Virus record (IMG/VR): IMGVR_UViG_2851870198_000001
Location: 32,001 to 96,000 of that record
Length of the DNA stretch: 64,000 bases
Source: a virus
Taxonomy: Duplodnaviria > Caudoviricetes
Direction: 5' to 3' (one strand)
A program made the translations under genes and the position numbers. Under the pieces are notes generated by a model that was not told where the DNA came from, did not search any database, and worked only from the letters and a program-made list of their open reading frames with translations. Shown in pieces: positions 21,657-56,644 of this stretch (positions are counted from its first letter, which is position 1; every line of letters starts with the position of its first letter).

Positions 21657-24125
21657 TCACTGGTCACCGCCCTGCTCGCGGGTGCGGTAGCGCAGCCGGC
21701 AGCGGCAGTTGATGGTGAGGTGGATGGGGGCGAGCTGATCGCCGGGGAACCGCATCGGGTAGCCGTCGACCTGGTACGGCTCGGCGACGGGCAGGGTGGT
21801 GCCGTCCACGGCTTCGTGGGCGGGCCGTACGCGGTCGTCGCGGCGGGTGACCCAGGTGCGGATGATGCCCGGGCCGATCGCCGCGGCGGTGGCCTCCGCG
21901 GAGCCGTTGACGGTGGCGACGGCCGCTGTCTCCGCGGCGTCGGTGATCTTCGTGGCGGCCATGTCGCGGAACGCGGTCCGCGCGAGCGCGACCAGGTCGT
22001 CAATGTCCTCGGTGACGTCCTGCCCTTGTGTGAGCAGGGTGGTGATCGTGTCGAGGAAGGCGCGGGCGATGTTCTCGGCGGCCGCCACGGCGTCCAGGAC
22101 CGCGGCCGTGATGCGGGGCGATGCCTCCGCCGGCAGGGGCACGCCGAAGGCGTCCGCGGTGCGCTGGGCGGTGGTGGCCGCGATCCGGGTGAGGGACCGG
22201 GCGAGCGCGCTGGTGACTTCCTCCAGCCACCGGTCGGTGCCGACGATGCGGTCGACGTCCAGCGGAGTGGTGCCGCCGCGGCTGTCCTGGGGGCTCTGCG
22301 GCCGCCAGAACCGGGTGCCCTTGCGGGCCTTGGGGGAGCGCAGGCGGGCGGTGATGACGCCCTCCTGCCGGTCGAACAGGGACTCCAGCGCCAGGGCTAC
22401 GGCGTCGCGGGCGCGGTCGAAGTCGGTGTCGGTGACCTCGAACTCCGGCCCGACGTGCGGGCTCTGGTGGGGGAGTGCCTTGGTCTGCAGGGTGCGGGCG
22501 TCCTCGACGGCGGCCGCGGCCGCGCCCGGCTCCGTCTCGGGCATCTCGCGGGCGTCGGCGACGGCGGCGGCCGCTTCACCCGGCGCCGAGGGGACGGCGT
22601 CCGCGCGGGCCTCGGCGACCGCGCCGGCCGCCGCGCCCCGTTCGGCGCCCATGGCGTCGGCAGGCGCTTCGCCGCCCTCGGCGCGGGCCTGCGCGACCGC
22701 TTCCGCCGCGGCGCCCTCCCCGGGTCCGGCCCCGGGGTCGAGCGGCGCGTTCGGATCGCCGCCGGCCCCGGGCATGGGACCGCCCATGCCCATGCCCATG
22801 CCGCCTTGGTCGCCCTGGATGCCGAGCGCGGCCGCGTCCTGCGGGCGCAGCGGAACGGGCGCCTTCTGCGGGGAGATCCACAGGGCGCGGGAGTGCGCGT
22901 TGTTGTAGGCGGGCAGGCCCGCGCGGCGCCGGTACTCGTCAATGGAGATCAGGCCCGCCTCGAACTCCTCGCGGGCCTCCTGGCGGCGCTTGCGGCGCGG
23001 CAGCTCCAGGGCCTGCACGGTGGACGTGTCGTAGCGGATGGACAGGTCGGCGCCGCCGAGGTCACCGGCGAACGCGTCAGCGATCAGCGACAGGTGGCCG
23101 AGCTCGGTGTGAATCCAGAACCCGTACTCTTCCTGCTCCGCGTTGTCGAAGGTGCGCCCGGAGGCGTTGCCGGTGACCGACTCGGGAACACCGAACGCGC
23201 CGAGAATCTCGATCTTCGCGTTCTGCGCGGCGTGCTCGTAGGCCATCTCACGCGGGCGGGTGGCGAGGTCGACGTACGTCATGCCGCCCTGCCCGGCGCC
23301 GACGACGGACACGTGCCCGGCGTACTCGGAGCCGGGCAGGAACCGTGCCTCCAGCCGGTCCATGTCCGCGTCGGTGAGCGAGCTGGTGTCGACGGCCACG
23401 ATCCCGCCCGGGCGCGCGTCGTTCTTGATGAACGCCACGTTGTACATGCGCGACAGGTGGTCGAGCTCGATGCTGATGCCGGCCGCTTCCAGCGGGGTCT
23501 GCCCGGAGAACGGATCGGTCGGGTGCGGCTCACGGATCCAGCGCACGCGTTCGGGTTCGAGCTCACGGACGTGCCCGTACAGGGTCGTGAACTCGAAGTG
23601 CTTGATGTACTCGCCCTTGTCGTCCGGCACGGGGATGACCCGGTCCGGGGGCAGCAGGTCGAGGCGGGTGATGGTGCCGCGGTTGGAGCGCGTGACCTCC
23701 AAGAACGCGCCGCGCTTGGACAGCAGGATCTGCGCGGACAGCCGCCGCCGAAGCTGCGCGCCGGACTCCAGCGGGTTCGCCTTCGGGCCGTTCAGCAGCC
23801 GCAGCAGCGGATGGTCGTCTATGACCTCCTCGAACTCGCCGTCTTCGGTGAGGCCGCGCCCGATCTGCAGGGGGAGCCGGGCGGCGTGCTTGCCCATGGT
23901 GTCGATGGCCTTGTAGACCCAGATGACACGCTCGTATCCCTCGGTGACGACACGGCCGATGTCCCAGCCGTCCGCGCGGCCTTCGGTGCCCCAGATGTTG
24001 GTGGTACCGGCGTAGGCGGTGGACGTGTACCCGCCCGTCCACGTGATCGTTTTCGACTCGTCCGGTTGGGGGCCCGGCGTCTGCAGCATGTTGCGCAGCG
24101 CGGGGAACCAGCGGCGTCGCGCCAT
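21657..24125 (-). CDS. Phage portal protein fused to C-terminal MuF/SPP1 gp7-like head morphogenesis domain
   Basis: HK97-like portal motifs (HPLLRLLN..PKANP, LDLLPPDRV, GQTPLEAA, FIKNDARPGG, ILGAFGVP). C-terminal WVTRRDDRVRPAH...FPGD...NCRC. Confidence 0.9.
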   Translation of the reverse strand: MARRRWFPALRNMLQTPGPQPDESKTITWTGGYTSTAYAGTTNIWGTEGRADGWDIGRVVTEGYERVIWVYKAIDTMGKHAARLPLQIGRGLTEDGEFEEVIDDHPLLRLLNGPKANPLESGAQLRRRLSAQILLSKRGAFLEVTRSNRGTITRLDLLPPDRVIPVPDDKGEYIKHFEFTTLYGHVRELEPERVRWIREPHPTDPFSGQTPLEAAGISIELDHLSRMYNVAFIKNDARPGGIVAVDTSSLTDADMDRLEARFLPGSEYAGHVSVVGAGQGGMTYVDLATRPREMAYEHAAQNAKIEILGAFGVPESVTGNASGRTFDNAEQEEYGFWIHTELGHLSLIADAFAGDLGGADLSIRYDTSTVQALELPRRKRRQEAREEFEAGLISIDEYRRRAGLPAYNNAHSRALWISPQKAPVPLRPQDAAALGIQGDQGGMGMGMGGPMPGAGGDPNAPLDPGAGPGEGAAAEAVAQARAEGGEAPADAMGAERGAAAGAVAEARADAVPSAPGEAAAAVADAREMPETEPGAAAAAVEDARTLQTKALPHQSPHVGPEFEVTDTDFDRARDAVALALESLFDRQEGVITARLRSPKARKGTRFWRPQSPQDSRGGTTPLDVDRIVGTDRWLEEVTSALARSLTRIAATTAQRTADAFGVPLPAEASPRITAAVLDAVAAAENIARAFLDTITTLLTQGQDVTEDIDDLVALARTAFRDMAATKITDAAETAAVATVNGSAEATAAAIGPGIIRTWVTRRDDRVRPAHEAVDGTTLPVAEPYQVDGYPMRFPGDQLAPIHLTINCRCRLRYRTREQGGDQ

Positions 24126-24126
24126 G

Positions 24127-24483
24127 TCACTCCTCCCCGCCGCTCAGCCACATGGCGACGGCCAGCAGGGAGCCGAACAGCACCGCCCAGGGGGTGATCC
24201 AGTACGCGCCCACGGTGGTCAGAGTCAGACCGAGCGTCAGCGTCACGTGCCCGGCGGCCCGGGAGCGGGGGGTGGCCGGCTCGTCGCGGAGGATGCTGCC
24301 GCCCGCGGTCGCGGTGACCAGGCCGATCAGGAGCAGCGCGACGGGCGGGAACGCTAGGTAGAGGGCTCCCAGCAGGCCGACCGTTCCGGCGGCGAACAGG
24401 AGCAGGCCTGTCACGTCGCGGGCGAGGCGTCGCCACGGCGCCGGATGGCTTGGGGGCGGTGGTGACTGCGTTGGAGGATTCAC
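24127..24483 (-). CDS. Membrane protein (about 4 TM)
   Basis: Hydrophobic ORF that abuts the portal gene and has a class A promoter. Confidence 0.7.
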   Translation of the reverse strand: MNPPTQSPPPPSHPAPWRRLARDVTGLLLFAAGTVGLLGALYLAFPPVALLLIGLVTATAGGSILRDEPATPRSRAAGHVTLTLGLTLTTVGAYWITPWAVLFGSLLAVAMWLSGGEE

Positions 24484-24520
24484 GCGGCGGACCGTAGGAA
24501 GGCCCGCGGGTTTGCGTCGC
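24484..24520 (-). promoter_or_regulatory. Class A promoter of portal operon
   Basis: GCGAC-N19-TACGGT-ccgccgc-GTG. Confidence 0.65.
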
Positions 24521-24540
24521 GGGCTACCCGGCGGCCGCGA

Positions 24541-24744
24541 TCACCAGGGCAGCCAGTCGCCCGAACCGCTCCCGGGGCTGCCGGGGCGGGACTCACCGGC
24601 GATGACGATGCAGGCGATGCCGAGCCAGGTGGCGACGGCCACGAGGATGCCGACCGTGGTGGCGACCTGGTCGTCACCGGTGTGTGCGTAGGTGAGGCAG
24701 CCGGACAGGCCGCCGAGGAGCAGGCCGAGGAGGAAGACGCGCAC
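24541..24744 (-). CDS. Small 2-TM membrane protein
   Basis: Hydrophobic C-terminal part of ORF 24541-24984. GTG 24744 follows an AGGA. Confidence 0.55.
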   Translation of the reverse strand: MRVFLLGLLLGGLSGCLTYAHTGDDQVATTVGILVAVATWLGIACIVIAGESRPGSPGSGSGDWLPW

Positions 24745-24754
24745 GGCGGGGGTC

Positions 24755-25198
24755 CTATCGGGCGGGGCGGGAGACGCCCGCGACGTAGGCGCTGATGCCG
24801 CGCCGCTGAATGTGGCCGCCGGGCACGAGCTTGGCGTTCGGCGGCGGGGTGGGGATCTTCCGCTTGGCGCGCACCGTCTGGTCGCCGCCGATGAGGTGCC
24901 GGTTGTCGACCAGGGCCTCGCAGTCGCGTCCGGCGACGTCCTCGTAGGGGCGGCGGCAGGCCCGGCAGTACACCTCAAGCGCATCGACGCGGATACCGCC
25001 CGCGGCAGTGAAGGAGCCGCGGAAGTCGGCTTGCTTCGCGACCCGGTCCTCGACCTTGATCTCCGCGGCGACGATCCACACGTGGGCGAGGGAATCGGTG
25101 GGCGCGGGGGCGGGAGGGGGCGGCGGGCTGTCGATCTGCTCGAAGAGATCAGCGAAGGGGGCGATCTCCAGTTGGTCCCGCACTACCGCTGTCGTCAC
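24755..25198 (-). CDS. Hypothetical protein with CxxC motif
   Basis: GGAGG RBS; YCRACRRPY. Confidence 0.7.
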   Translation of the reverse strand: MTTAVVRDQLEIAPFADLFEQIDSPPPPPAPAPTDSLAHVWIVAAEIKVEDRVAKQADFRGSFTAAGGIRVDALEVYCRACRRPYEDVAGRDCEALVDNRHLIGGDQTVRAKRKIPTPPPNAKLVPGGHIQRRGISAYVAGVSRPAR

Positions 25199-25253
25199 GT
25201 GGAAGTCCTCCGGTATCTCAGTGGCCCCCCAGCGTCAACGTCTCGCTGTCGTA

Positions 25254-25282
25254 TGGACGGAGTGACCGCCCGTGGCGTTACA
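25254..25282 (-). promoter_or_regulatory. Class B (ECF-sigma-type) promoter
   Basis: TGTAAC-N17-CGTCCA. Confidence 0.55.
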
Positions 25283-25302
25283 CCTGGGCATGAGGAGGAA
25301 CG

Positions 25303-25332
25303 CAGGAACCCCCGCCGTGGCGGGGGTTCCTG
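25303..25332 (-). terminator. Intrinsic terminator-like hairpin
   Basis: CAGGAACCCCCGCC/GGCGGGGGTTCCTG inverted repeat directly after the NUDIX stop. Confidence 0.65.
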
Positions 25333-25348
25333 GGCCAGGGAGGGACTT

Positions 25349-25780
25349 CTACCAGCCGTGCACGGAGAACGGTTCGCCCTTGAGGTAGTGGGCGATGCCC
25401 AGTGCGTTGTACGGGACGGTGTTGTCGGGGAGTTGGTCACTGGGGTGCCAGGACAGGCCCGCGCACTTGTGGGGCTCCATGTTGCGTGGCTCGCCCTCCC
25501 AGTGCCGGGCCGCGAAGAACCAGCCGATGCGGGGCTCCCCCTCCGGGTTGCGGAAGTGCATGACGTGCACGACCCGTAGGGCCTCCCGCGCGACGATGAT
25601 GCCGGTCTCTTCCAGGCCCTCGCGGATCACGGCCTCGAACACGTCCTCGCCGTCATCGAGTTTCCCGGAGGGGAGGTTCAGCATTCCGTCGGCGTAGCCG
25701 GTGCCCTGCCGTTCGGCAAGGCACACAGCTCCGTCCCGCTCCAGGATGAGCATGACGTCGATCACGGGCTGTTGGGGCAC
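25349..25780 (-). CDS. NUDIX hydrolase
   Basis: Nudix box GKLDDGEDVFEAVIREGLEETG; EPHKC motif. Confidence 0.93.
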   Translation of the reverse strand: MPQQPVIDVMLILERDGAVCLAERQGTGYADGMLNLPSGKLDDGEDVFEAVIREGLEETGIIVAREALRVVHVMHFRNPEGEPRIGWFFAARHWEGEPRNMEPHKCAGLSWHPSDQLPDNTVPYNALGIAHYLKGEPFSVHGW

Positions 25781-25835
25781 TGTGCTTCGTCCTCCGACCG
25801 GTGGGGCGCTTGCCGGTAGGGGACTCTAGCGGCGC

Positions 25836-26450
25836 TCAGCCTGCGAGCAGCCCCATCTCTTCAACGCGTTTCACGGTCCACTGGACACGCTCCGCCGCGG
25901 TGAGGCCGAGCGGCATTTCCAGGATCGGCAGGTTCGGGACCCTGCTGAGGGTGTCGCGGATCGCGTCGTCCGCTGGGTCCTGCAGCGCGAGGACTTTCTC
26001 CCGCATGCGGTCGCCGCCGGCCTTCTGGTCGTACCGGTCGGAGCAGTACACGACCGCGTCGTACGCGTGAGGCATCCAGGCCCGGCAGAAGGCATCGGCC
26101 GCGCCCAGCACGGTCGCGGTCGCCGGTTCGGTGAGGTCCAGGACCAGGCTGGCGAGTGCCAGAACGTTCGCCGGGGTCTTGTCGGTGATGAGGACCTGGT
26201 GGTGGCGGGCGGCGCGCAGGGGCACCGTGAAGTGCTGCGCGAAGAGGTCGACCTCTGCCACGAGATCGAAGGTCCCTTGGTTGTGGAGGACGATGTCCTC
26301 CATGAACGGGCTGGTGCGGGCCGGCTCCCCGGTGCAGGCGGCGTTGATGCCCTGCTCACGCAGGTGCGCGGTCAGCGCGTGGACGAACGTCGTCTTGCCG
26401 GCCGCTTGGGTGCCTTCGACGGCGATAACGCGGCAGTCGCGGATGGGCAC
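25836..26450 (-). CDS. P-loop NMP kinase-like (thymidylate kinase/AAA_28-like) protein
   Basis: N-terminal IAVEGTQAAGKTT; TGEPAR; LITDKT; YDAVVY. Confidence 0.8.
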   Translation of the reverse strand: MPIRDCRVIAVEGTQAAGKTTFVHALTAHLREQGINAACTGEPARTSPFMEDIVLHNQGTFDLVAEVDLFAQHFTVPLRAARHHQVLITDKTPANVLALASLVLDLTEPATATVLGAADAFCRAWMPHAYDAVVYCSDRYDQKAGGDRMREKVLALQDPADDAIRDTLSRVPNLPILEMPLGLTAAERVQWTVKRVEEMGLLAG

Positions 26451-27232
26451 GAGTCCTCCAGGAGTGCGGTGAAGGTGGGAGTTTCCAGCCAGCCCCAGGC
26501 GCCTTTGGCGCCGTCGGCGATGGCTCGGTTGACGTTCAGGCCGGGGTTCGGCCGGTGGGCGAGTCCGGCGGTGAGGGCGGCGACGTAGGCCGTCGAGAGG
26601 GAGTGGCGGAGGTTCAGCACGCTGACGCGTTCACGGCCTTCGGGCTCGCCGCCCTCGATCCAACGACGGTGCCAGGCAGGCATGGACGCCTTGCGTAGCT
26701 CGGGCTGGGTGACGTCCAGGCCGAGCTCCGTGCAGACGTCCACCAGGCGGCGGGAGGCGCCGGTGAGCAGGTGGCCGGCGTCGTACCGGGTGTCCACGTA
26801 GTGGCTGGCGTTCGGGTCGGCGTCGCGGCGCTGCCGCCACTGCTCGCGGGCCTGTTGCAGGGCGGGGACGGCGTCCGTGGGGGCGTTGGCCTCCAGCACG
26901 GACAAGTCCGCGCAGAACTGGTGCCCGGTGATGATGGTGGCCGTGTCCGCGGCCGCGGTGACCGTGTCCGCGGCGTGCCGGATCATGGCGTCCATCTCCC
27001 CGGGCTCCTCGACGTAGACACTGGTCCACTCGTACGGCACGTCTGTGAGGTCGGCCGTGCCACCGGCGGGCAGGTCGAGCCAGGCGACGCTGTAGCAGAA
27101 GGGCCGCTGACCGTTCTTGATCCTGTAGTTCTTCGTCCACTCGACATCGACGGACGCGATGCGCACCGTCCCGGAGCGCAACGGCGGGGGCGCCAAGGGG
27201 CGGGCGCTGGTCAAGCTGCTCTTGATGATCAT
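26372..27232 (-). CDS. DnaQ/DEDD 3'-5' exonuclease-fold protein
   Basis: ExoI-like ASVDVEW, ExoII-like ITGHQFCADL, YVDT, RRLVDVCTELG; atypical ExoIII (NLRH). Confidence 0.6.
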   Translation of the reverse strand: MIIKSSLTSARPLAPPPLRSGTVRIASVDVEWTKNYRIKNGQRPFCYSVAWLDLPAGGTADLTDVPYEWTSVYVEEPGEMDAMIRHAADTVTAAADTATIITGHQFCADLSVLEANAPTDAVPALQQAREQWRQRRDADPNASHYVDTRYDAGHLLTGASRRLVDVCTELGLDVTQPELRKASMPAWHRRWIEGGEPEGRERVSVLNLRHSLSTAYVAALTAGLAHRPNPGLNVNRAIADGAKGAWGWLETPTFTALLEDSCPSATAALSPSKAPKRPARRRSSTR

Positions 27233-27290
27233 GGGGTGTTCCTGCCGTAGGACGGGGCCGCGCGCCCGGTGCGCGCGGCCCCGTCGGACG

Positions 27291-28079
27291 CTACTCGTTG
27301 CGCGTGGCCGCCACGCCGCCCAGGAGAGAAGGCGCTGCCTCCCACGCGGCTTCGGACAGCGCGTCGAAGATGCTCAGCGGTCCCTCCCAGTGGAGCCGGC
27401 CCGTGTGCTTGCCCCCGAGGAGCGCCGTGGTGAGCGCTGAGGACAGGACGCTTCCGGCCAGGGCGTCCGGGGAGAACGCCGCGGCCCGTTCCTCCGCGAG
27501 GGCCTCACAGGCTTCCTGCGCGCTGGCCTGCTGCTGCTCGCCGGCGAACGACTTGAGCGGGTTCAGGCCGTGCGCGCTGGCGGTGTCGCTGATGAGTCCG
27601 GCCGGGCCCAGGTCGTGGCTGGTGTCCACACACAGGGCGATTCCCCGCTCCCGGGTGGTGCGGTCCTTCCAGGCGTCGGCGATGGCGGTCACGCCCGGGT
27701 AGCGCGGCTCGCCTTCGGCGCGGGGGAGCTGCTGGAGGACGTGCAGGTCGTCGGCACCGTTGTGCCAGGCGAGGACCTGCGACTTGCGGCGGGCCTGGAC
27801 GAGGAGGACGTCGAGCTGCCGGACGATCGCCGCCGTCTCGCCCATGGCCTGCGGTAAGAGGACCCGGTACCCGAAGTTCATGAGCGGGGCGGAGACGGGA
27901 ACGGACTGGGTGCGGTGGATCTTCATGAGCACCGCGGCGGCGCCCATGAGGATCGGTTCATCCCCGGCCTCACCCCACAGCAGAGAGATACCGGTCAGCC
28001 ACGTCGCCGGTTTCTGTACGGGCCGGGTGACCGACCCGAACGGCGTTTCGGGCCAGCCGAGGTTGGTGCGTTCCAGCAC
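27291..28079 (-). CDS. Hypothetical protein, probable degenerate DnaQ-fold paralog
   Basis: VLAWHNGADDL and CVDTSHDL parallel the neighbouring gene; no DxE motif is evident. Confidence 0.55.
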   Translation of the reverse strand: MLERTNLGWPETPFGSVTRPVQKPATWLTGISLLWGEAGDEPILMGAAAVLMKIHRTQSVPVSAPLMNFGYRVLLPQAMGETAAIVRQLDVLLVQARRKSQVLAWHNGADDLHVLQQLPRAEGEPRYPGVTAIADAWKDRTTRERGIALCVDTSHDLGPAGLISDTASAHGLNPLKSFAGEQQQASAQEACEALAEERAAAFSPDALAGSVLSSALTTALLGGKHTGRLHWEGPLSIFDALSEAAWEAAPSLLGGVAATRNE

Positions 28080-28080
28080 G

Positions 28081-29058
28081 TCACACCCCCTGGGTGACGG
28101 CGTGGATTGAGCGGCCGACGTACTTGGAGATGTGGTTCTCCTTGAAGCGGTACCGCTCCCAGATGGCGCTGATGGGCTCCTCCAGGACGTTGCCCAGGTT
28201 CTCCCACAGGTCCGGCGCGTCGTAGACCGGCCACGCGCGGGCGATGCCGTTCGGCTCCACGACGATCATGTGCCCCTCGTTCTCGGGGGTCCACGCCGTC
28301 AGCCGCAGTGCCGGGGACCACTGCATCTCAGCGCGCTGCTCCTTGAGCCGCGCGAACGTGGTCTCGGCTTCCTCGGTGGTGATGAACTCGTGGTCGGCGA
28401 GGTTCAGCGCGTTGCCCTTGCGCAGGGGCAGGATCAGCTTGACCTTCGTGGCGTCCAGGACGTCGGCGATCTGCACGGTGTACGGCAGCACCGACAGGGT
28501 GGAGCGGTAGACCACGGCCGACAAGGCGAGGGGGATGCCGGCCTCTTGCAGCACCCGCACGCCGGCCATCGTCTTGTCGTAGTCGCCACGGACGCGTTTG
28601 AAAGCGGCGCGGGGTCCCTCGAACCCGACATTGGCGTATGCGATCTTGTCGGCGATGTTCTTCGCGTGGTCGAGGGCGTGTGTGGCGTTCGTGGGCACGG
28701 CCACGATGTGGTGCCCGTGGAAGATGTCCACGACCTCGCTGAAGTCTTTCCGCATCAGCGGCTCACCGCCGGACAGGAAGACCCGGCTGACGCCGGAGAG
28801 GTTCTGGCGGATGGTGTCGAGCTGGTCGAGGGTGGGGTCCGGCATCTGCAGGGTTTCGGAGCAGAACGAGCAGTCGAAGTCACAGCGCTTGGTGACCTGC
28901 ACGATCACTGACAGCGGCGCGGTGAGCGAGTCCGCGATGGCCTTGATGCTGAGGTCTGCCGGGGCGTCGAAGTGCTGGCCGTTGAAGGCGTATCCGACGC
29001 CTCCGCCGAGTTCCTGCCGGTTCTGCCTGGGGATATCGGGCATTCCGAGGTCGGTCAC
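28081..29058 (-). CDS. Radical SAM protein (325 aa) with Cys-less SPASM/twitch-like tail
   Basis: CDFDCSFC, LSGGEPL, VPTN; GGAGG RBS before GTG 29058. Confidence 0.93.
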   Translation of the reverse strand: MTDLGMPDIPRQNRQELGGGVGYAFNGQHFDAPADLSIKAIADSLTAPLSVIVQVTKRCDFDCSFCSETLQMPDPTLDQLDTIRQNLSGVSRVFLSGGEPLMRKDFSEVVDIFHGHHIVAVPTNATHALDHAKNIADKIAYANVGFEGPRAAFKRVRGDYDKTMAGVRVLQEAGIPLALSAVVYRSTLSVLPYTVQIADVLDATKVKLILPLRKGNALNLADHEFITTEEAETTFARLKEQRAEMQWSPALRLTAWTPENEGHMIVVEPNGIARAWPVYDAPDLWENLGNVLEEPISAIWERYRFKENHISKYVGRSIHAVTQGV

Positions 29059-29213
29059 GGTTCCTCCGTGTTCAGTTGGATGGAGCAGAACGGCCCGGCG
29101 CGGGGCGATGACCTGCCGTGGGGGAACACGGATCGGGCAGTTCGTTCCCGCGCCGGGAGTTGTGCCTGTCCGGCGGCTCGGCCAGGGGACATCCGGGCCG
29201 CCGGACAGGGGCT

Positions 29214-29903
29214 TTATGCGGTGCGCTCCAACTCCCACAGCAGTTGGTCCAGGCCGACGGCCCGGAAGGAGCCGAGTCGGCGCACCATTTGGGAGGCGAG
29301 GATGGTCGGCAGGAGTTTGTGGCCGTACGGGATCGGCCCGTCGGGGCGCTGCACGACCTGCACGCCGTGTTCGCCGTAGCCGTAGCCGACGCCGTTCACC
29401 CCGTACATGGGCGCGCTCTGCGCGAGGAACACCATCGGGTCGGGTGTGAGGTGCGGGCACAGGTCGGCGGCGGGGCGTGCGTGCTGGGCACACACCGGCG
29501 GCTGGTTCGTGAGGATCACCGGCTGCGCGGGGTCCACGGTGTCCGGGCCGGCGAGGAAGATGAACCCGAGCGGAGTCCGGGCGGGCTCGGCGCAGACCTG
29601 GCAGCGCAGCGCTTGCATGCAGCCGCGTTGCCGCAGGGGGTGCATCATCCGCCACTGCGGCCGGCCCGTCGGCCGTCCCTGGTCATCGACCGGGCCGAGC
29701 CCGCAGCGCGCCCACAGCACGCCGCGCAGGTCACGGTCGCGGGGGTCTTCGTCGGCGTAGCGCAGCCGGTAGCGGTCCGGCCCGATCGTGGTCAGCATCA
29801 GGTTGTCGGGGGCGGCTTCCTCGCCCTCGCGCTGGATGACGAACGGGACGATGCGGGAGTCGGGGAGCACGGTGGTCTTTCTCGTGGTGCGGTTGGTGGT
29901 CAC
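29214..29903 (-). CDS. Conserved actinobacterial hypothetical protein (CQVC...C)
   Basis: GTGA coupling to the upstream gene; HPLRQR..M..LRCQVC; QPPVC. Confidence 0.7.
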   Translation of the reverse strand: MTTNRTTRKTTVLPDSRIVPFVIQREGEEAAPDNLMLTTIGPDRYRLRYADEDPRDRDLRGVLWARCGLGPVDDQGRPTGRPQWRMMHPLRQRGCMQALRCQVCAEPARTPLGFIFLAGPDTVDPAQPVILTNQPPVCAQHARPAADLCPHLTPDPMVFLAQSAPMYGVNGVGYGYGEHGVQVVQRPDGPIPYGHKLLPTILASQMVRRLGSFRAVGLDQLLWELERTA

Positions 29904-30325
29904 GCGGCCTCCTTGAGGCAGCGGATGGCGGCAAGCCGGTCGTGGAGTTCGTTGACGGTCCACCCCAGCCGGCGCAGGTGCGCTATCTCCGCCTGGCGGC
30001 CGTGAGGCAGGGGATCGGTGTGCAGGGCGCGGGCGCGCAGGACGAGCTGCGCCGCGGCGGTGTCCCGCTCGGCCTCGCCCGCCACGGCGATGGTGACCAG
30101 CCGGGCGAGGTGCTCGCGGAGCCGGTCGGCGAGCTGGGCGGTCTCTCCTTCGGCCGGGGGGACGTCGTCCAGGACGGCGGCCACGTCGTCCAGCAGGGCG
30201 CCACCGTCGAACGCGGTCCAGCCGCGAAGCCGGTCCAGCACGGTGGTGAGCTGCCCGCTGTCCAGGGGCGGCGTCCACGGGCGGACGGGACGCGTGAAGC
30301 GGGGGACGGTGTTGCGGGCGGTCAT
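29900..30325 (-). CDS. DUF6415-like helical protein
   Basis: LREHLARLV...HLRRLGW pattern; translationally coupled on both sides. Confidence 0.6.
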   Translation of the reverse strand: MTARNTVPRFTRPVRPWTPPLDSGQLTTVLDRLRGWTAFDGGALLDDVAAVLDDVPPAEGETAQLADRLREHLARLVTIAVAGEAERDTAAAQLVLRARALHTDPLPHGRQAEIAHLRRLGWTVNELHDRLAAIRCLKEAA

Positions 30326-30882
30326 GGCCTGCCGTCCACGGCGAGGGTGCACCAGGTGGTGGTGCCGTTCTGCTCTGTTCCCCATGTGCCGCCGTGAGCA
30401 GCGGCGAGGCAGTTGACGAGGAAGAGGCCGCGACCGCGCTCGGCGTCGTCGGGGGCGTTGCGCGCGACCGGCTGGCCGGGTGTCTCACCGTGGACGGCCA
30501 GGCGCAGGACGCCGTCCCGCACCGTCACGGTCATGGTGATCTGATTACCGTCACCGTGCTGGATGGCGTTGGTGACGAGTTCGGAGACGATGAGCGTGGC
30601 GTCGTCCACGAGGGCCTCAAGGCCGCAGTAGCGCAGCCGGGCCGCGGTCAACTTCCGGGCCATCCCCACCCGGCGCGCGTCCCGTTCGGGGATCTCGCCC
30701 CCGGCGCGGGGCGGACAGACCTCGAAGCACACGCTCATCCGGTCGTCGTCCCGCCGCAGGGGCTCGGGAAGGCCGTGGTCGGGGAGTAACCGGTCCGCCG
30801 CAGGCGCTGTCAGGGGAAGAGCAGCGGCTTCTAAGGCGCTTCGACGGGTGCGCCCCGGGGCCGGGAAGTGGGCAGTCGTCAT
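30322..30882 (-). CDS. HATPase_c (RsbW/AbaA-like) ATP-binding protein
   Basis: LIVSELVTNAIQHG, ERGRGLFLV; two in-frame TTA codons. Confidence 0.88.
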   Translation of the reverse strand: MTTAHFPAPGRTRRSALEAAALPLTAPAADRLLPDHGLPEPLRRDDDRMSVCFEVCPPRAGGEIPERDARRVGMARKLTAARLRYCGLEALVDDATLIVSELVTNAIQHGDGNQITMTVTVRDGVLRLAVHGETPGQPVARNAPDDAERGRGLFLVNCLAAAHGGTWGTEQNGTTTWCTLAVDGRP

Positions 30883-30988
30883 GGTCGGCTCCATGTCGAA
30901 ATGGCGTGTGACGACATGGTGGCTAACCGTGAAGGCCCCAACTATCAGTACTTGTTGATAGTTGGGGCCAAGGCTTCACCCGGCGTGA

Positions 30989-32185
30989 CTAGTGGGCGGG
31001 TGCGGGGCCCAGCCACGACCCGTAGGACAGGAAGCTGTCTGGGAGGCGGCGGTGAGCGGCCTCCAGCCCGGCGTACGTCTCCCGCACGGTCGGGTGGTAC
31101 TTCGCCTGCTGCGGGGCGGCCTTGCGCGCCTTGAGCAGGTTCTCGAAGGAGGCGTCGATGTTGCCCGTCCACAGCAGGGAGCGGGCGACCTCTGCGTAGT
31201 GGTGGCTGGTCCGGGAGTTGGGCCACGAGTCCGGGATGTACGTGGTGCGGGCGGCCTCCACGGACTCGCCGTACTGGTCCAGCTCGGCGAGGACGGAGAC
31301 GCGGTGGACGCCCACGTTGGTCGGACCGAAGGCGAGCCAGTGGACCTTCATCGCTTCGCCGGTCTCGCTCGCGATCTGCTCGGCTTCACCGAGGTGGACG
31401 TGCGCTTCGTCCGCGTCGTGCGCCCGGCCGGCCAGCACCGCGGCGCCCAGGTGGAGCTGCCCGGTGACGACACGGCGTTCGCGGGTGGGCTCGGCCTGTT
31501 CCAGGGTGGTCAGGCCGAGACGCACCAGGCGGGTGCCGGTGCGGTACTTGCCCTCACGCAGGTAGGTCAGGGCGCGCAGGTACTGGTACATGCCGCCCAG
31601 GACGGCGTCTGACCCACGCTGGGCGGCCCAGTCGAGGCGGGCCAGCGCGAGCTGGGCGAGGTCGGGATAGCCCAGCTTCGCCGCGACGTCGTAGGCCGTC
31701 CGGTAGAAGCTCGCCAGTGTCAGCCAGCCCTCCCGGGTCTGAGCGGTGTGCGCGGCCGTCGTGCCTTCCTCGATGAGACTCGAGACTCGCGACGCGGCGC
31801 TCTTGATGTTCCCCGCCCGTACATCCGCGCAGAGCCGTTCCGCTTCGCGGTGCAGTTCCTCCGGTCGGCGGGCCTGGACGTCGGGGTCGGGGCCCAGGTC
31901 GTACACGTCGAGGGCTTCACGGATCGGCCTTATCAGCACGTCGAGTTGGTCGGCGCGCAACTCGTCGGCGTAGGGCTGACCCTGAATGGTCACCACTTCC
32001 ACGCGCAGCGCGCGGGCGCACGCCCCCACGACGTGCGGGGAGGCAGGGATGACGCCTTGCTCAACCTTCGTCAGGGTGCTGTACGGGATGTTCGCGAGCT
32101 CGCTGAGGGCTCTTTGCGTCAATCCCCGTTCGCGGCGCAGACGGGCGATTCGAGTACCGGTGTGGTCTTGCGGCAGAGCGTGCAT
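30989..32185 (-). CDS. XRE-family HTH regulator with helical/TPR-like C-terminus
   Basis: RIARLRRERGLTQRALSE...LTKVEQG; FGPTNV..H motif; AGGAG RBS. Confidence 0.9.
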   Translation of the reverse strand: MHALPQDHTGTRIARLRRERGLTQRALSELANIPYSTLTKVEQGVIPASPHVVGACARALRVEVVTIQGQPYADELRADQLDVLIRPIREALDVYDLGPDPDVQARRPEELHREAERLCADVRAGNIKSAASRVSSLIEEGTTAAHTAQTREGWLTLASFYRTAYDVAAKLGYPDLAQLALARLDWAAQRGSDAVLGGMYQYLRALTYLREGKYRTGTRLVRLGLTTLEQAEPTRERRVVTGQLHLGAAVLAGRAHDADEAHVHLGEAEQIASETGEAMKVHWLAFGPTNVGVHRVSVLAELDQYGESVEAARTTYIPDSWPNSRTSHHYAEVARSLLWTGNIDASFENLLKARKAAPQQAKYHPTVRETYAGLEAAHRRLPDSFLSYGSWLGPAPAH

Positions 32186-32248
32186 ACTGGCTCCTGTTCT
32201 GCTTCGACACCAGAACCGTACCCGCGGTCGGCTCCGCCGGTACACGAA

Positions 32249-32280
32249 TAGCCCCACCGCTCACACCGAGTGGTGGGGCT
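32249..32280 (-). terminator. Hairpin downstream of recombinase
   Basis: AGCCCCACC...GGTGGGGCT inverted repeat. Confidence 0.5.
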
Positions 32281-32294
32281 TCGTGTTCCGCTTG

Positions 32295-33500
32295 TCAGGC
32301 GGGTTCCGTGTGACCGCCGAGCGGAACCTTCGACAGTGGGTCGTCCTCCGGTTTGATCAGGGTGCGGTCGTAGACCGTGTCAGCCGTGGTCGACCCTGCC
32401 GCCCAGCGGCCGCGTCGGTTCCGTTCCCGCAGCGGTACCCCGGCCGCGATCATGTCGGTGTTCGGGCCGGCCCGCAGACTGTGCGCGCGGACCTTCTTCC
32501 CGCCCAGGTACGGGATTCCGGCGCGGCTGGCGAGCAGCTGCACACGCTCGTTGACCGCGCCGCCCTTCATCCGTTCGCCGCGCCGGGTGGCGAGCTTGCG
32601 GTTGGCGAGCCGGCCGGTGACGGTCAGGGCCCGGAAGACGGGCTGTGCCGGGGCGTCGGCGTCGAGCTCCTTGAGTACCGCGAACCAGGCCTTCGCGCGG
32701 TGGACCAGGCGGATGTCGTCGCGGTCGGCGATGAACTCCGTGGCGCCCTTGGCCTGCCGGTCCGTCTTGGACGTCGCCGTGGTGACGAGCAGCCCGGTGG
32801 GCAGGATCTTCACCTGTTTGACGAGTAGGTCCGTGAGCTCGGCGCGGCGGTGCAGGTTGGAGTAGGCCAGCGTCAGCATGAACGCGTCCCGCTTGCCGAT
32901 GTTCGTGGACTCGTCGCATTGCTCCAGGCACTTGAGCAGGTAGGGGAGGGTGAGCGCGGCCGCGCGGTCGACCTCCCCGCCGGCGGCCGCCCACTCCTGC
33001 CGCCACCGCCGGATCTTCCCGCGGACGCGCGTGGGGTCGGGCCGCATGTCGGCCGGCTGCCAGTTCCAGATGCGGCTCATGTACTGGCTGACCGTGTCCG
33101 GCTTGAACTCCCCGCCCTTTCCGCGGCGGATGAGGTGCAGGCCGTAGGAGGTATACGTCGCCGTGGTGCACGGATACGCCACCCGCGGCGGCTCCTGCCG
33201 CGCGCACCACTGCTGGAAGGCGCGGATGGTGGAGTCGCGGTTGATCCGCGTGTTCTCGGCGAGGTCGGGTTCGGCGAGGTCTTCCTTGTCCTCCTCGGTG
33301 ATGCGGAAGTCGTCCTCTGTCCACGGCGGCCGCTCGTCGGCGCGGGGCGGCATCTCGCCGGGGGCGAGCATCGTGTGCCGGGTGAAGAGGTAGCGCACCG
33401 GCTCCGGCTGCTGTTCGGAGCCGACGAGTTCGGCGTCGATGACCTCCAGCTCGGCGCCGCCGGGTTCGAGGTTCAGTCGCTCCAGTCGCTCGATGGTCAC
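32295..33500 (-). CDS. Cre-like tyrosine recombinase
   Basis: LHRRAEL (R), SKTD (K), HSLRAG (HxxR), GRW (W), TVY (Y); GTG 33500 coupled to upstream stop. Confidence 0.9.
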   Translation of the reverse strand: MTIERLERLNLEPGGAELEVIDAELVGSEQQPEPVRYLFTRHTMLAPGEMPPRADERPPWTEDDFRITEEDKEDLAEPDLAENTRINRDSTIRAFQQWCARQEPPRVAYPCTTATYTSYGLHLIRRGKGGEFKPDTVSQYMSRIWNWQPADMRPDPTRVRGKIRRWRQEWAAAGGEVDRAAALTLPYLLKCLEQCDESTNIGKRDAFMLTLAYSNLHRRAELTDLLVKQVKILPTGLLVTTATSKTDRQAKGATEFIADRDDIRLVHRAKAWFAVLKELDADAPAQPVFRALTVTGRLANRKLATRRGERMKGGAVNERVQLLASRAGIPYLGGKKVRAHSLRAGPNTDMIAAGVPLRERNRRGRWAAGSTTADTVYDRTLIKPEDDPLSKVPLGGHTEPA

Positions 33501-33832
33501 CGCGCGGCCTCGACCGGGTAGTCGGGATGGCTCCTCCAACGCTCGGCTTCCCCGCGGTACCAGGCCAGCTTGCGGACGGCGCCGACGATGTCCCCGTGGT
33601 GAAGGGACTCCTCCGCCGCGCCGAGTGCGTACCCGATCGACTCCCAGAACCGCGGTTCGGTGATCTGCTCCTGGGCGCGGGCCTTCACGAACTTGTGCAT
33701 GGCGGTGATCTTGGCGTGCATCTCGGTGAAGGCGTCGGCGTCGGCCGGGGCGGCGATGGGCGATCCGTGGGGCGGCGCTTCGGTTGGCTCCGGCCGGAAT
33801 CCCTGCGGGCTGTACCCCCGTCGCTCGGTCAC
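33497..33832 (-). CDS. Hypothetical protein
   Basis: GTGA coupling; protein-like composition from GTG 33832. Confidence 0.6.
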   Translation of the reverse strand: MTERRGYSPQGFRPEPTEAPPHGSPIAAPADADAFTEMHAKITAMHKFVKARAQEQITEPRFWESIGYALGAAEESLHHGDIVGAVRKLAWYRGEAERWRSHPDYPVEAAR

Positions 33833-34194
33833 GAGTCGGCTCCGTCCTGGAGGTCGGCGGGCTTGCGGAAGCCGAAGGAGGCGATGGCGTCTGGCCTGTC
33901 CACCCAGCCGTCTGCCCACGCGGTGAGATTGCCTGCTGCATCGGTGTCCAGCTTGATCACTCGCATGATCGGGTACATCTCGGCGGGGTGCTCGACGTGG
34001 CCGAGGTGCGCCAGGCGGTCGGCGGCCGGCACCGGCCCGCTGCCGGCGCGCGGCTTCCATCCGGTTTCGCTGATGTGCGGGTAGTTTTCTGCCCTTTCAT
34101 GGAGAGCCCGCTTGGCGGCCGGGTCGGCGGAGGTGCGCATCCGGCCGAGCGTGGGATGGCTGTCGGGCTGCTGCGGGCTGGTCTGGTCGGTCAC
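33829..34194 (-). CDS. Hypothetical protein
   Basis: GGGAGG RBS; first gene of the recombinase operon. Confidence 0.65.
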   Translation of the reverse strand: MTDQTSPQQPDSHPTLGRMRTSADPAAKRALHERAENYPHISETGWKPRAGSGPVPAADRLAHLGHVEHPAEMYPIMRVIKLDTDAAGNLTAWADGWVDRPDAIASFGFRKPADLQDGADS

Positions 34195-34375
34195 TGTGAC
34201 CCCTCCCCAGGTGGCGACTATTCCAAATAGAATAACCGGTAAGGGTGTCCTAACTGGGTTACGGCGCGCCGGAGTTAATCAGTCAAACCCTGGGAAAACC
34301 CTGCACTCGCAGGGCGGGGTGTGCCATCCTTCTAACCCGGATTGAACCCGGGTTAGTTAGCTGAGAGGCGTTCTC

Positions 34376-34828: not shown

Positions 34829-35115
34829 CCGTCATCCCCTACACCCACTGGGCCTACTTCCCCGACCAGGACAGCGCGCAGCACTGCGCCACCGACCTGG
34901 CGGATTTCGTCACCCGTCTTCGGGAGCAGGAAGACGGGACATGGCTGCTGCTGGCCGGGCGTGACGTCGACACGGCCGAACTGCCGGAGCGGCACGGCAT
35001 GGTCGAGGCGATCGTCCAGCGGTACGGAGGAGCCTACGACGGCGGCGAGGTCACCTACCTCCACGGCAAACCGGTGGCCGATCCCCTGATCACTGACGAG
35101 GAGAGCGACCGATGA
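34825..35115 (+). CDS. RraB-like (RNase E inhibitor fold) protein
   Basis: HWAYFP...YGGAYDGG; GTGA coupling. Confidence 0.6.
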   Translation: MTVIPYTHWAYFPDQDSAQHCATDLADFVTRLREQEDGTWLLLAGRDVDTAELPERHGMVEAIVQRYGGAYDGGEVTYLHGKPVADPLITDEESDR

Positions 35116-35711
35116 CCCGCCAGACCAGCGCCCCGTTCGACCACATCAGCCTCAACCCCACGCACGTCACCCTGGGCGAGATCGTCCGCCGTGTCGAAGA
35201 CGGCATGCTCGAACTCGACCCGCCGTATCAGCGCGGTGACGTATGGACCGAGGACCAGCGCATGGCTCTCGTCCAGTCGTGGCTGCGCGGGCTGCCCGCC
35301 GGCGTGGTCATCCTCTCGGACCGCTGCAACGAGCGATGGAGCAAGGCGCACGACGGACAGAGCCCTTACGACACCGGTGAGCCGCTGTGGGCCTGCGTGG
35401 ACGGGAAACAGCGGTTCACCACTGCCGTGTTGTGGCGCACCGACGGGTTCGCGGTGCCCGCGTCGTGGCTGAACCCGGAGCTCGTGGAGACGACCGAGGA
35501 GACCGACGACGGCCCGTACGTCCGCTACAGCGGCCTGACCGTGCCCGGGCAGCGGTTCGTCGAGCGGTACTGCTCCCTCCTGATCGCCGAAGCCAAGGAG
35601 TGCGCGACCGTCGAAGAGGAAGCCGAGCTGTACCTCCTCGTCAACGGCGGCGGCACCCCCCAGACCGACGAGACCATGGCGAACGCCGCACGCGTCGCCG
35701 GGACCGACTGA
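35112..35711 (+). CDS. Stand-alone DUF262 (GmrS/ParB-like) domain protein
   Basis: PPYQRGDVW, VDGKQR. Confidence 0.85.
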   Translation: MTRQTSAPFDHISLNPTHVTLGEIVRRVEDGMLELDPPYQRGDVWTEDQRMALVQSWLRGLPAGVVILSDRCNERWSKAHDGQSPYDTGEPLWACVDGKQRFTTAVLWRTDGFAVPASWLNPELVETTEETDDGPYVRYSGLTVPGQRFVERYCSLLIAEAKECATVEEEAELYLLVNGGGTPQTDETMANAARVAGTD

Positions 35712-37357: not shown

Positions 37358-37583
37358 TCTGGTGGCATAACAGAAGAGCCGGGCCCTTGTGGAGGGCTTG
37401 GCAGGACAACGCCACGGCGCACGAGCGAGCGCCAGGCGAACGCTCCCGAACCCACCAGGAGGGCTCTCATGCTCTGCGCCCGTTCCCTCTTCCCCGGCGT
37501 CTCCGTCCTGACGTGACGTGACGCGGCCCCGACCTGGGGTTTCGCCCGTCATCCACGTCACGTCACTTCCCGGGGAGACTGCT

Positions 37584-51659: not shown

Positions 51660-52619
51660 TCATGCGGCGAGCTCCGCATCGATCGCCATCTGCTCCCAGC
51701 CGGCCCCCGTCGGGCTCGGTGAGCTCGGCACGCGTGGGCCGGACGCGCCCGGGGTGGGCGGCTGGGTGATGCGCCGGTACCAGGCCAGCGCGCCGTCGAG
51801 GCAGTAGCCACACGTCTGTGCCTTGTGGGTGCATGACTCCAGCCGGATCTTCCGCTTGCGGTACCCGTACGACCAGGCCTGAGAGTCCGCGGACGCCAGC
51901 CGCTCCCCGTACATGGCCAGCCCGTCGGTCTTCACACCGAAGCCGTGCAGGCGCAGCCCCAGCGCGGACAGCGTTCCGATGATCTCGGCTATCTCGCTGG
52001 TGTCCTCCCGGCGGCACACCGACCCCACCCCCACCACGGGGACCGTGTCCAGGTCGACCCCGGCTTCCTCGTACAGGCGCACGCAGTGCAGGTAGTCCTC
52101 AAGGGCCCAGCCCTGCAGTACGGGGATCCACGGCACATCGGGGGCCAGGGCGCGCAGTTCGAGGAAGTTGGCGACCGTGAGGCGCTGGTGGATGCGCACC
52201 GCGGTCGTCAGGTCGTGCTCGTCGTCGCCGTCGGCCAGGCCGCGGAGCTCGCGCGTGCCGTGGAAGTAGCGTTCGTGGCGGGCGCCGAGGTGCCGGTTTT
52301 TCCCGTAGATCACCCACGGCTCGCACATGCAGTCCTGCGGTGCGGCCCACAGCATCCGCTCCGGCCCCAACTGGGCGCGGTAGCGGCGCACCTCGGCCGC
52401 GTACTCGGCCGGGCTCACCCTCCACCGGCCGAACTTCTTGAGCTCGGTGAACCCGCCGGAGTCGAGGGCGAAGTCGTGCAGGGCGCGCGGCATCACCCGG
52501 TTCGGGGAGCGGCGGGCCAGGCGGGCGCGGGAGACGAACAGGGCGACGCCGTCCAGGCCGGGATGCGGTTTCCACAGCCAGGACGGTTCAGGGATGCCGA
52601 GGAAGAACCGGGCCTTCAT
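51660..52619 (-). CDS. DpdA/TGT-like deazaguanine DNA transglycosylase
   Basis: FALDSGGF, APQDCMCEP, IPVLQG, VGVGSVC, LHGFGVK, SADSQAW, C-terminal Cys cluster. Confidence 0.82.
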   Translation of the reverse strand: MKARFFLGIPEPSWLWKPHPGLDGVALFVSRARLARRSPNRVMPRALHDFALDSGGFTELKKFGRWRVSPAEYAAEVRRYRAQLGPERMLWAAPQDCMCEPWVIYGKNRHLGARHERYFHGTRELRGLADGDDEHDLTTAVRIHQRLTVANFLELRALAPDVPWIPVLQGWALEDYLHCVRLYEEAGVDLDTVPVVGVGSVCRREDTSEIAEIIGTLSALGLRLHGFGVKTDGLAMYGERLASADSQAWSYGYRKRKIRLESCTHKAQTCGYCLDGALAWYRRITQPPTPGASGPRVPSSPSPTGAGWEQMAIDAELAA

Positions 52620-54951: not shown

Positions 54952-55111
54952 GCCCCGGTGATAGCGACCGCGCGCGGCCGCCGTCCTGGGATCCGGCGGC
55001 ACGCCCCTCGGATGGCGGGCATTCGTCGTACCGGGGCGCCGAGTGCGCGGTCCGGGCCAGATCGTTCGTTTCGGCCGGTCAGAGCGGGGTTTGGGCGTAG
55101 GCTCACGGTTC

Positions 55112-56621: not shown

Positions 56622-56644
56622 GCCGCAGGTGTTCCACGCGCGGG

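Follow-up and report, generated by a model that had tools for sequence, protein, structure and literature searches.

A temperate Streptomyces phage carries, as optional cargo, a co-conserved radical SAM operon with two exonuclease-fold proteins, a kinase and a NUDIX protein

The 64,000-nucleotide stretch analyzed here, referred to as the window, spans 32001-96000 of virus record IMGVR_UViG_2851870198_000001, which is 125,903 bp long and rated 95% complete. Five co-oriented open reading frames (ORFs) on the minus strand, at 25349-29058, encode a radical S-adenosylmethionine enzyme (rSAM), two proteins designated B and C, a kinase and a NUDIX protein. The locus raises two questions, whether the five genes constitute a unit and what a modified nucleotide, the product suggested in an earlier note made from the sequence alone, could do for the phage or for the cell that carries it. 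The analysis showed that the five genes are a self-contained, horizontally mobile operon, carried here by a temperate Streptomyces phage for which it is optional cargo.

The earlier note had described a tightly packed, co-oriented operon closed by a terminator, and both its coordinates and its layout (Table 1) were found to be correct. The window DNA is GC-rich (68-75% GC) and all five reading frames had a third-position GC of 0.90-0.93, which favors a coding function for each. The terminator-like hairpin beyond the NUDIX gene has a perfect 13-bp core (-30.8 kcal/mol, z = -3.35, 1 of 200 shuffles as stable). It lacks a U-tract and hence was not listed by the consensus terminator scan. At the opposite end, the untranslated leader of about 155 nt (29059-29215, minus strand) folded with an energy of -80.8 kcal/mol (z = -4.77), a stability reached by none of 200 shuffles, and contains two strong hairpins side by side. 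The first is probably the terminator of the upstream gene; from the end of the second it is about 25 nt to the ribosome binding site (RBS) of the rSAM gene. Hairpins at both ends thus insulate the operon.

Homologues of the rSAM were abundant, 869 at E ≤ 1e-3, and the best 120 were all at least 60% identical and almost all from Actinomycetota. A survey of 185,579 species genomes, one genome per species, located 74 actinobacterial loci, and their gene content was scored by local tblastn with the window proteins. The complete, co-linear five-gene cassette was present at 43 of the 74 loci and a four-gene form lacking C at another 11, so that the grouping is not a matter of chance. The remaining loci lacked the NUDIX gene alone (3), had it displaced by 5 kb (1), were cut by a contig end (6) or gave a partial rSAM match or had an irregular arrangement (10). 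The co-conservation on which the earlier note had staked its proposal was therefore confirmed. No sixth conserved gene emerged when 356 neighboring proteins were clustered. The flanks vary from locus to locus, and the commonest flanking families, Methyltransf_19 (11 loci), HATPase_c_2 (10 loci) and XRE (XRE/DUF5753, 8 loci), are typical of variable actinomycete islands.

The five proteins do not evolve at the same rate. The median identity to homologues was 64% for the rSAM, 57% for the NUDIX protein, 55% for both C and the kinase and 32% for B, which is the fastest-evolving member, yet is never lost in the regular forms of the cassette. In a quick IQ-TREE tree, the four-gene form was a single Frankiaceae clade of nine with a support of 100 in the Shimodaira-Hasegawa-like approximate likelihood ratio test (SH-aLRT). 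The remainder of the tree tracks actinomycete families, so transfer of the cassette seems to occur mostly within families. One Streptomyces locus (L005:2703-9229) departs from the usual arrangement in that about 1.1 kb interrupts the cassette between B and C and the NUDIX gene is missing; there an XRE gene and a tandem pair of dCTP-deaminase-like genes come after the cassette. Genes of the endonuclease/exonuclease/phosphatase (EEP, Exo_endo_phos) family adjoin the cassette at three other loci (L010:7024-7911, L020:7647-8504 and L079:7995-9832, the last with two copies), and an EEP gene may be an optional addition. In L015, genes resembling HIT and nucleoside deoxyribosyltransferase lie upstream of the cassette; they were considered as extra components and discarded because they occur at that locus only.

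The same five genes are genes 39-43 of Gilgamesh, a temperate Streptomyces phage of 129 kb whose host is the laboratory strain S. lividans JI 1326; there they are annotated as three hypothetical proteins, a thymidylate kinase and a MutT-like enzyme. The record and Gilgamesh have a common order consisting of an integrase, a helix-turn-helix (HTH) regulator, small genes, the cassette, two small genes, a portal-MuF fusion and a giant gene. The cassette proteins of the two phages are 79-90% identical; the portal, capsid and tape measure proteins are 51-66% identical, a range that widens to 34-66% once the integrase is included. Gilgamesh, which was deposited twice, is the sole phage with the rSAM or C among 50,697 deposited phage records, and four IMG/VR contigs bear the cassette.

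The region upstream of the portal was compared in the ten IMG/VR contigs with the portals closest to that of the window (68-81% identity), six of which extend more than 8 kb upstream. The two small genes and the portal are present in all ten. None of these contigs has the rSAM, B, C or the kinase in the slot, as far as their sequence extends, and one has a partial NUDIX gene at the contig edge. Four relatives have other contents in the slot, a 371-residue rSAM with a GNAT protein, a methyltransferase, a NUDIX protein with an EEP protein, an MvdD-type ATP-grasp protein and RNase T, or a LanB dehydratase with a LanB-C/PCMT fusion. The absence of the cassette from the closest relatives and the presence of other gene sets in the same slot show that it is interchangeable cargo in a hotspot upstream of the portal, outside the phage core.

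Other carriers are diverse. An unrelated prophage type with Terminase_6C and an SPP1-type portal also has the cassette just upstream of the portal gene (L004:2193-14683). The cassette was likewise found in a conjugative element with a TraG-like type IV secretion system coupling protein and a TrwC relaxase (L016), in an integrating element with integrases and RepSA (L060), and in Micromonosporaceae elements with Replic_Relax and an integrase or transposase (L017, L018, L024 and L030). CRISPR-Cas lies next to it at two loci, type I-C in L017 and type I-E in L011. One locus of the genome collection, L015, belongs to a Lentzea plasmid, although no plasmid in PLSDB had an rSAM match at 1e-20. The surroundings at L012, L026 and L055 are ordinary chromosomal genes, which argues for a benefit to the cell and not only to the mobile element.

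The rSAM core was recognized by Pfam (PF04055 Radical_SAM, E 4.5e-13). The CX3CX2C motif is located at C59, C63 and C66, a GGEP motif is present and the C-terminal domain is conserved and Cys-free. These three residues are the only cysteines in the protein, and no other Cys column is conserved in an alignment of 18 homologues (71% mean column identity), which excludes an auxiliary Fe-S cluster. That much of the earlier description of the tail stood; the SPASM pattern also attributed to it proved to be a visual resemblance, since the SPASM model (PF13186) did not match the tail at E ≤ 0.1 and the NCBIfam SPASM-family matches stop by about residue 245. Some database sources name the homologues 'radical SAM/SPASM'.

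The best NCBIfam matches of the rSAM were PqqE, NirJ, WgkB, AhbD and MoaA, all several-fold below their cut-offs. The scores were 55.3 bits against a cut-off of 381 for PqqE, 50.9 against 650 for WgkB, and 40.6 against 284 (TIGR02666) and 49.5 against 325 (TIGR02668) for the MoaA models; StsB scored 37.6 against 625. MoaA also has a second 4Fe-4S cluster at the C-terminus, for which the rSAM has no cysteines. A search of the PDB with the 18-homologue profile gave PqqE (2e-9), SkfB (1e-8), BlsE (3.5e-7) and MoaA (2e-6), while solved viperins were weaker (1e-4) and were matched over residues 34-102 only. The PADLOC models of prokaryotic viperins (pVip) aligned with residues 51-151 (PDLC02903, model positions 2-105 of 257, 33 bits, 8.5e-9) and 51-128 (PDLC02904, model positions 5-88 of 262, 27 bits, 5.1e-7). 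The earlier statement that the enzyme lacks clear viperin signatures was thus upheld, as the pVip models and the solved viperins match the generic N-terminal core only. By these comparisons, the rSAM belongs to none of the PqqE, NirJ, WgkB, AhbD, SkfB, BlsE, MoaA or viperin families. Longer fused forms were not found at 1e-20, which is weak evidence, and the ESM Atlas offered no structure of the rSAM, the feature neighbors there being generic radical SAM clusters throughout.

The third-best solved relative, BlsE, is a nucleoside-antibiotic enzyme, and the hosts are actinomycetes. The operon might accordingly be read as a pathway to a nucleoside-analogue natural product, in which the rSAM would remodel a phosphorylated nucleotide, the NUDIX protein would remove phosphates to free an antimetabolite and the kinase and exonuclease would give self-resistance. 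Such a scheme would agree with an rSAM and a phosphohydrolase being paired. Oxetanocin A biosynthesis is the precedent, where the B12-dependent rSAM OxsB acts on phosphorylated nucleotides and the HD-domain phosphohydrolase OxsA sets the phosphate level. However, the cassette rSAM has no B12 domain and the cassette hydrolase is a NUDIX protein. Moreover, genes for an exporter, a regulator or tailoring are missing from the unit, and its carriers are phages and conjugative elements instead of biosynthetic clusters, so that we regard a natural product pathway as very unlikely.

Proteins B and C had no family match in Pfam, NCBIfam, PADLOC or PHROG. The one faint Pfam signal in C was sub-threshold (RNase_H_2 at 0.023), no Pfam domain was present in any of the 120 matches listed among its 976 homologues in the protein collection, and no solved PDB chain matched C at the sequence level. 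AlphaFold models were built on alignments of 32 homologues of B and 30 of C and had predicted local distance difference test (pLDDT) values of 88.7 and 88.1, respectively, with the C tail at 51-57. In VIA-align searches, the top match of each was the exonuclease domain of a family B polymerase, with Z 13.9 and a root-mean-square deviation (rmsd) of 3.2 over 183 residues for C, and Z 13.0 and rmsd 3.0 over 167 residues for B. Nearly all of the matches listed (50 for C) were DEDD-type exonuclease domains or proteins, and the BFVD structure matches were PolB and a YprB-like phage protein. The two proteins are paralogous (hhalign probability 99.2%, E 2e-19). They differ from the PolB exonuclease domains, and from the YprB-like RNase H fold that they also resemble (Z 13-14 over about 170-185 residues), in that they are stand-alone proteins and not polymerase domains; C keeps ExoI and ExoII without the canonical ExoIII aspartate, and B has no ExoI. 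As judged by these searches and those with the rSAM, B and C are in no family at all and the rSAM is in no described one.

In the alignment of 30 C sequences, the invariant residues include D29-x-E31, H104/Q105/D109, D147 and H210. The fifth residue past H210 is Ala, so the aspartate of the canonical ExoIII H-x4-D motif is absent; the invariant D147, located after strand 5, might stand in for it. From the conserved motifs, C is probably catalytically active as an exonuclease. B has lost the ExoI DxE and the ExoIII His. The hhalign alignment pairs ISLLW of B with VDVEW of C and LSSAL of B with LRHSL of C, and no acidic pair on strand 1 is conserved in the 32 B sequences, where the invariant residues include D90, R97, H106 and D152. 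The active plus degenerate exonuclease pair envisaged earlier is therefore sound with respect to B; C looks active and at the same time is missing the ExoIII aspartate. The role in self-resistance suggested for the pair was weakened, because the Frankiaceae clade retains only the degenerate B, whereas C, the copy that looks active, has been lost. The last 25 or so residues of C are an extension confined to Streptomyces, and the DNA encoding them (26372-26450) also encodes, in another frame, the start of the kinase. The C genes of other genera end some 25 codons sooner, and tblastn runs through the stop there because the DNA encoding the kinase P-loop is conserved.

The best sequence neighbors of the rSAM core are MoaA and peptide-modifying SPASM/twitch enzymes (PqqE, SkfB, anSME), and B is translationally coupled to the rSAM gene. 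These observations bear on the possibility that the rSAM is a PqqE- or SkfB-like protein maturase that modifies B at its N-terminal loop (residues 6-21), the other genes being loosely linked. Residues N6, L7, P13, G15 and P20 of this loop are conserved despite a pLDDT of about 52, as a modification site might be. The cysteines of the auxiliary cluster that define SPASM/twitch maturases are absent, however. No peptide partner and no PqqD domain or other recognition element (RRE) of ribosomally synthesized and post-translationally modified peptide (RiPP) systems was found in the rSAM or its neighbors, and the kinase and NUDIX genes are linked as firmly as B. A maturase function is consequently highly improbable.

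The kinase scored below the Pfam cut-offs for AAA_28 (26.2 bits against 27, 1e-5) and Thymidylate_kin (PF02223, 22.9 against 27, 7.8e-5). The deoxythymidine monophosphate (dTMP) kinase model TIGR00041 gave 23.3 bits against a cut-off of 83.25, over residues 8-46 only. The Walker A motif is GTQAAGKTT, and D90-K91-T92 are invariant. The profile matches in the PDB were weak, a deoxyadenosine/deoxycytidine kinase at 2.4e-4 and the thymidylate kinase (TMPK) of M. tuberculosis at 7e-4, which suggests a P-loop nucleoside/nucleotide kinase-like protein that is remotely related to the dTMP and deoxynucleoside kinases. The NUDIX protein was readily assigned (PF00293, E 4.6e-16, 59.5 bits against a cut-off of 21.1). 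Its Nudix box, GX5EX7REUXEEXGU, is intact, and G39, E45, R53, E54, E57 and E58 are invariant in 23 sequences. The profile matched MutT/NUDIX structures in the PDB (1.5e-18) and also plant NUDX1, NUDT15, MutT and MTH1. The protein scored below the equivalog cut-offs for MutT, the 8-oxo-dGTPase (NF008044, 40.7 bits against 148; TIGR00586, 32.7 against 97.9). The nearest relatives are the nucleoside triphosphate (NTP)-sanitizing enzymes MutT, NUDT15 and MTH1. With Nudix PF00293, a P-loop kinase and the PolB/DnaQ-type folds of B and C, all four partners of the rSAM have folds associated with nucleotides or nucleic acids, as the earlier note had it. That note had also looked to a characterized cofactor, RiPP or defense model as a possible counterargument; none from Pfam, NCBIfam, PADLOC, PDB or PHROG could be assigned to the genes.

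A kinase, an NTP pyrophosphohydrolase and an exonuclease are the classical accessory set of base-replacing phages. The cassette could therefore serve nucleic acid hypermodification, with the logic of the pre-replicative modification of T4-type phages. The rSAM would make a non-canonical (deoxy)nucleoside mono- or triphosphate, the kinase would convert the product to the triphosphate, the NUDIX protein would remove the competing canonical deoxynucleoside triphosphate (dNTP), the exonuclease would supply or edit nucleotides and the modified carrier DNA would resist restriction. The cassette is phage-borne, and genes of Gilgamesh that resemble queuine tRNA-ribosyltransferase (TGT) and 3'-phosphoadenosine-5'-phosphosulfate (PAPS) reductase, 75 kb from its cassette, show that DNA modification occurs in this phage group. 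On the other hand, the whole 126-kb record has no DNA polymerase of family A, B or C and no TGT homologue, the unit has no transferase or glycosylase to install a base, the cassette is missing in the closest phage relatives and the chromosomal and conjugative-element copies are not partnered with a restriction gene. We consider hypermodification quite unlikely. A link to 7-deazaguanine chemistry was rejected because the record of the window has the cassette and no TGT. The mobile-cargo context also shifts the weight from a precursor of DNA modification toward an antiviral or conflict function.

Four partners directed at nucleotides or nucleic acids are locked to the rSAM, and the module is mobile, which together suggest a conflict function involving a modified nucleotide. 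The reading that we favor, although tentatively, is a mobile module for conflict that works through a modified nucleotide and most likely protects the lysogen or other carrier from other phages. The catalytic residues on which such a function would depend are kept, the CX3CX2C motif of the rSAM, Walker A of the kinase, the Nudix box and the DxE, H..D and H residues of C. A role that protects the carrier is preferred because some copies can benefit only the cell and because B, dead and fast-evolving, looks like a sensor or adaptor.

We infer the class of substrate, every reaction step, the partnership of B with the rSAM and the defensive direction as follows. The rSAM would use 5'-deoxyadenosyl-radical chemistry, with no auxiliary Fe-S cluster, to convert an NTP, a dNTP, a nucleoside monophosphate (NMP) or a 3'-terminal nucleotide into a modified nucleotide. 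The kinase and the MutT-type NUDIX protein would shift the substrate or product between the mono- and triphosphate, and in this way feed the rSAM or limit the level of the analogue. C would be a working 3'-5' exonuclease that trims the 3' ends of nucleic acids, for example, ends that bear the analogue. B, the catalytically dead copy coupled in translation to the rSAM gene, would be an adaptor or sensor subunit for the rSAM. As a consequence, nucleic acid synthesis would be poisoned or marked, as proposed for viperin with its kinase and for the Ophion system.

The closest known designs are pVip and Ophion. Like pVip, the cassette combines an rSAM with a nucleotide kinase in one operon on mobile or defense-prone DNA, a modified nucleotide is the expected product and the CX3CX2C motif is invariant. 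Unlike pVip, it does not match the profile over the full length including the C-terminal NTP-binding domain, and the C-terminal domain of the cassette rSAM is unrelated. The pVip systems are not known to include a NUDIX gene or a pair of exonuclease-fold genes. Ophion consists of the rSAM OpnA, the PHP protein OpnB and the phosphoribosyltransferase (PRTase) OpnC and is an experimentally validated anti-phage defense for which the authors propose interference with nucleic acid synthesis (bioRxiv 10.1101/2025.09.30.679545). The likeness is one of design, an rSAM together with a proofreading-type phosphoesterase and an enzyme of nucleotide metabolism. The cassette has a DEDD fold, a kinase and a NUDIX protein where Ophion has PHP and PRTase, and its hosts are Actinomycetota, whereas those of Ophion are Gammaproteobacteria. 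Pfam detected no PHP or Pribosyltran domain in the five cassette genes.

Several observations weigh against a module that defends the carrier, 1) the defense-island signal is modest, in that PADLOC found a known or candidate defense gene within four genes on either side at only 3 of 18 loci (CRISPR-Cas in L011 and L017, PDC-S03 in L019) and a Pfam scan of the same span found a clear mobile-element or defense marker at about 13 of 39, 2) the pVip models cover no more of the rSAM than the generic core, 3) the fourth acidic residue of C is displaced from the canonical H-x4-D position, so that its activity is not assured, 4) the phage copy adjoins the portal-MuF fusion and a giant SNF2/methylase/UvrD protein, a neighborhood that is associated with counter-defense and 5) the leader hairpins lie directly before the RBS, too close to it for a promoter to fit in between, so that the operon may be read only by antiterminated phage transcription and not in the lysogen. 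Both inverted repeats of the leader are kept in Gilgamesh and in the Streptomyces loci L001, L002 and L003, without compensatory changes, and the hairpins may be terminators, attenuators or operators at the DNA level. No Rfam family matched in 24000-31000 at E ≤ 1, leader hairpins included. Consensus scans yielded no promoter in 24000-34200 and no terminator at the operon ends, Streptomyces signals being different from that consensus.

The last two of these observations would suit counter-defense cargo, a module that destroys or repairs the products of nucleotide-based host immunity, such as chain-terminating or signaling nucleotides. The NUDIX protein and the exonuclease would clean up and the kinase would restore the pools, and the leader hairpins might tie expression to phage antitermination. 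Several copies are on phages and on conjugative or integrative elements, two phage types that are unrelated to each other both have the cassette a short way upstream of the portal, and the slot of one relative has a NUDIX protein, an EEP protein and RNase T without an rSAM. However, the rSAM has no obvious part in cleaning up, yet is the most conserved member. Copies occur among chromosomal genes or beside CRISPR-Cas, where an anti-defense gene would be of no use to the cell, and one phage (two records) among 50,697 deposited contrasts with 74 species genomes. For these reasons counter-defense seems unlikely.

Within the favored reading of a carrier-protecting module, a bolder version, possible although doubtful, is an immune module that makes a poison nucleotide and has a built-in proofreader. 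The rSAM, as a new kind of radical enzyme devoid of an auxiliary cluster, would convert an ordinary nucleotide into a chain-terminating or miscoding analogue when B senses the nucleic acid of an invader, while the NUDIX protein and C would clear the pools and 3' ends of the carrier. If this is true, lysogens of Gilgamesh-like phages and other carriers would exclude competing phages without dying.

A literature search, subscription journals lying outside it, found no description of the cassette or of phage Gilgamesh. Viperins are a rare case of chemistry common to bacterial and human immunity, and the cassette would add a widespread module of that general design. The system is unusually tractable, since an isolated and sequenced phage, Gilgamesh, carries the cassette and close phage relatives that lack it hold other sets in the slot. 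Identification of the product could reveal a new nucleotide analogue, and the cassette could show the role of a paired active and dead proofreading domain outside a polymerase. The cargo hotspot in these large temperate actinophages is also a place to find further systems.

Table 1. Coordinates of the operon, its flanking hairpins and other features of the window and of related contigs
Feature	Position	Strand	Remarks
rSAM gene	28081-29058	-	325 aa; GTG start at 29058, 4 nt past GGAGG
Protein B gene	27291-28079	-	262 aa; begins 1 nt past the rSAM stop
Protein C gene	26372-27232	-	286 aa; 58-nt gap after B
Kinase gene	25836-26450	-	204 aa; 79-nt overlap with the C tail, in another frame
NUDIX gene	25349-25780	-	143 aa; 55-nt gap after the kinase gene
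Terminator-like hairpin closing the operon	about 25299-25336	-	13 nt past the NUDIX stop
Two adjacent strong hairpins	29085-29208	-	untranslated leader of the rSAM gene; from folding
Cys-rich protein	29214-29900	-	228 aa; CxxC; PHROG 30088; not in a Pfam family; adjoins the cassette on the upstream side
XRE-family HTH protein (422 aa), HATPase_c_2 anti-sigma-like ATPase, DUF6415 protein	29903-32257	-	between the integrase and the cassette
Giant single ORF	3-21332, off the left edge	-	directly downstream of portal-MuF; full length in the record 7,694 aa
GmrSD_N-like	35112-35708	+	other phage gene; separate from GmrSD_C-like
GmrSD_C-like	54295-55002	-	other phage gene; separate from GmrSD_N-like
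Vut_1/YhhQ-family transporter-like	52619-53257	-	other phage gene
FtsK/SpoIIIE ATPase	37518-39572	+	other phage gene
ATP-dependent DNA ligase	55656-56693	-	other phage gene
Alternative slot cargo	L085:5904-8801; L086:5758-8802; L088:3403-7654; L092:1223-7732		portal relatives

In at least six Streptomyces loci, a homologue of the Cys-rich protein encoded just upstream of the operon likewise comes before the cassette. The gene was considered as a cassette component and rejected, because it also precedes other cargo in phages that lack the cassette (L085 and L088). It thus probably belongs to the phage backbone and may mark the edge of the hotspot.

The giant ORF encodes an SNF2 helicase, a faint Eco57I-like methylase and a UvrD helicase domain, and we take it to resemble the multi-enzyme 'polyvalent' proteins of phages. 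The counterpart in Gilgamesh, gene 48, has 4,624 residues, and only the first 190 or so align, with 48% identity. The XRE and HATPase_c_2 genes located between the integrase and the cassette of the window recur near the cassette at many other loci.

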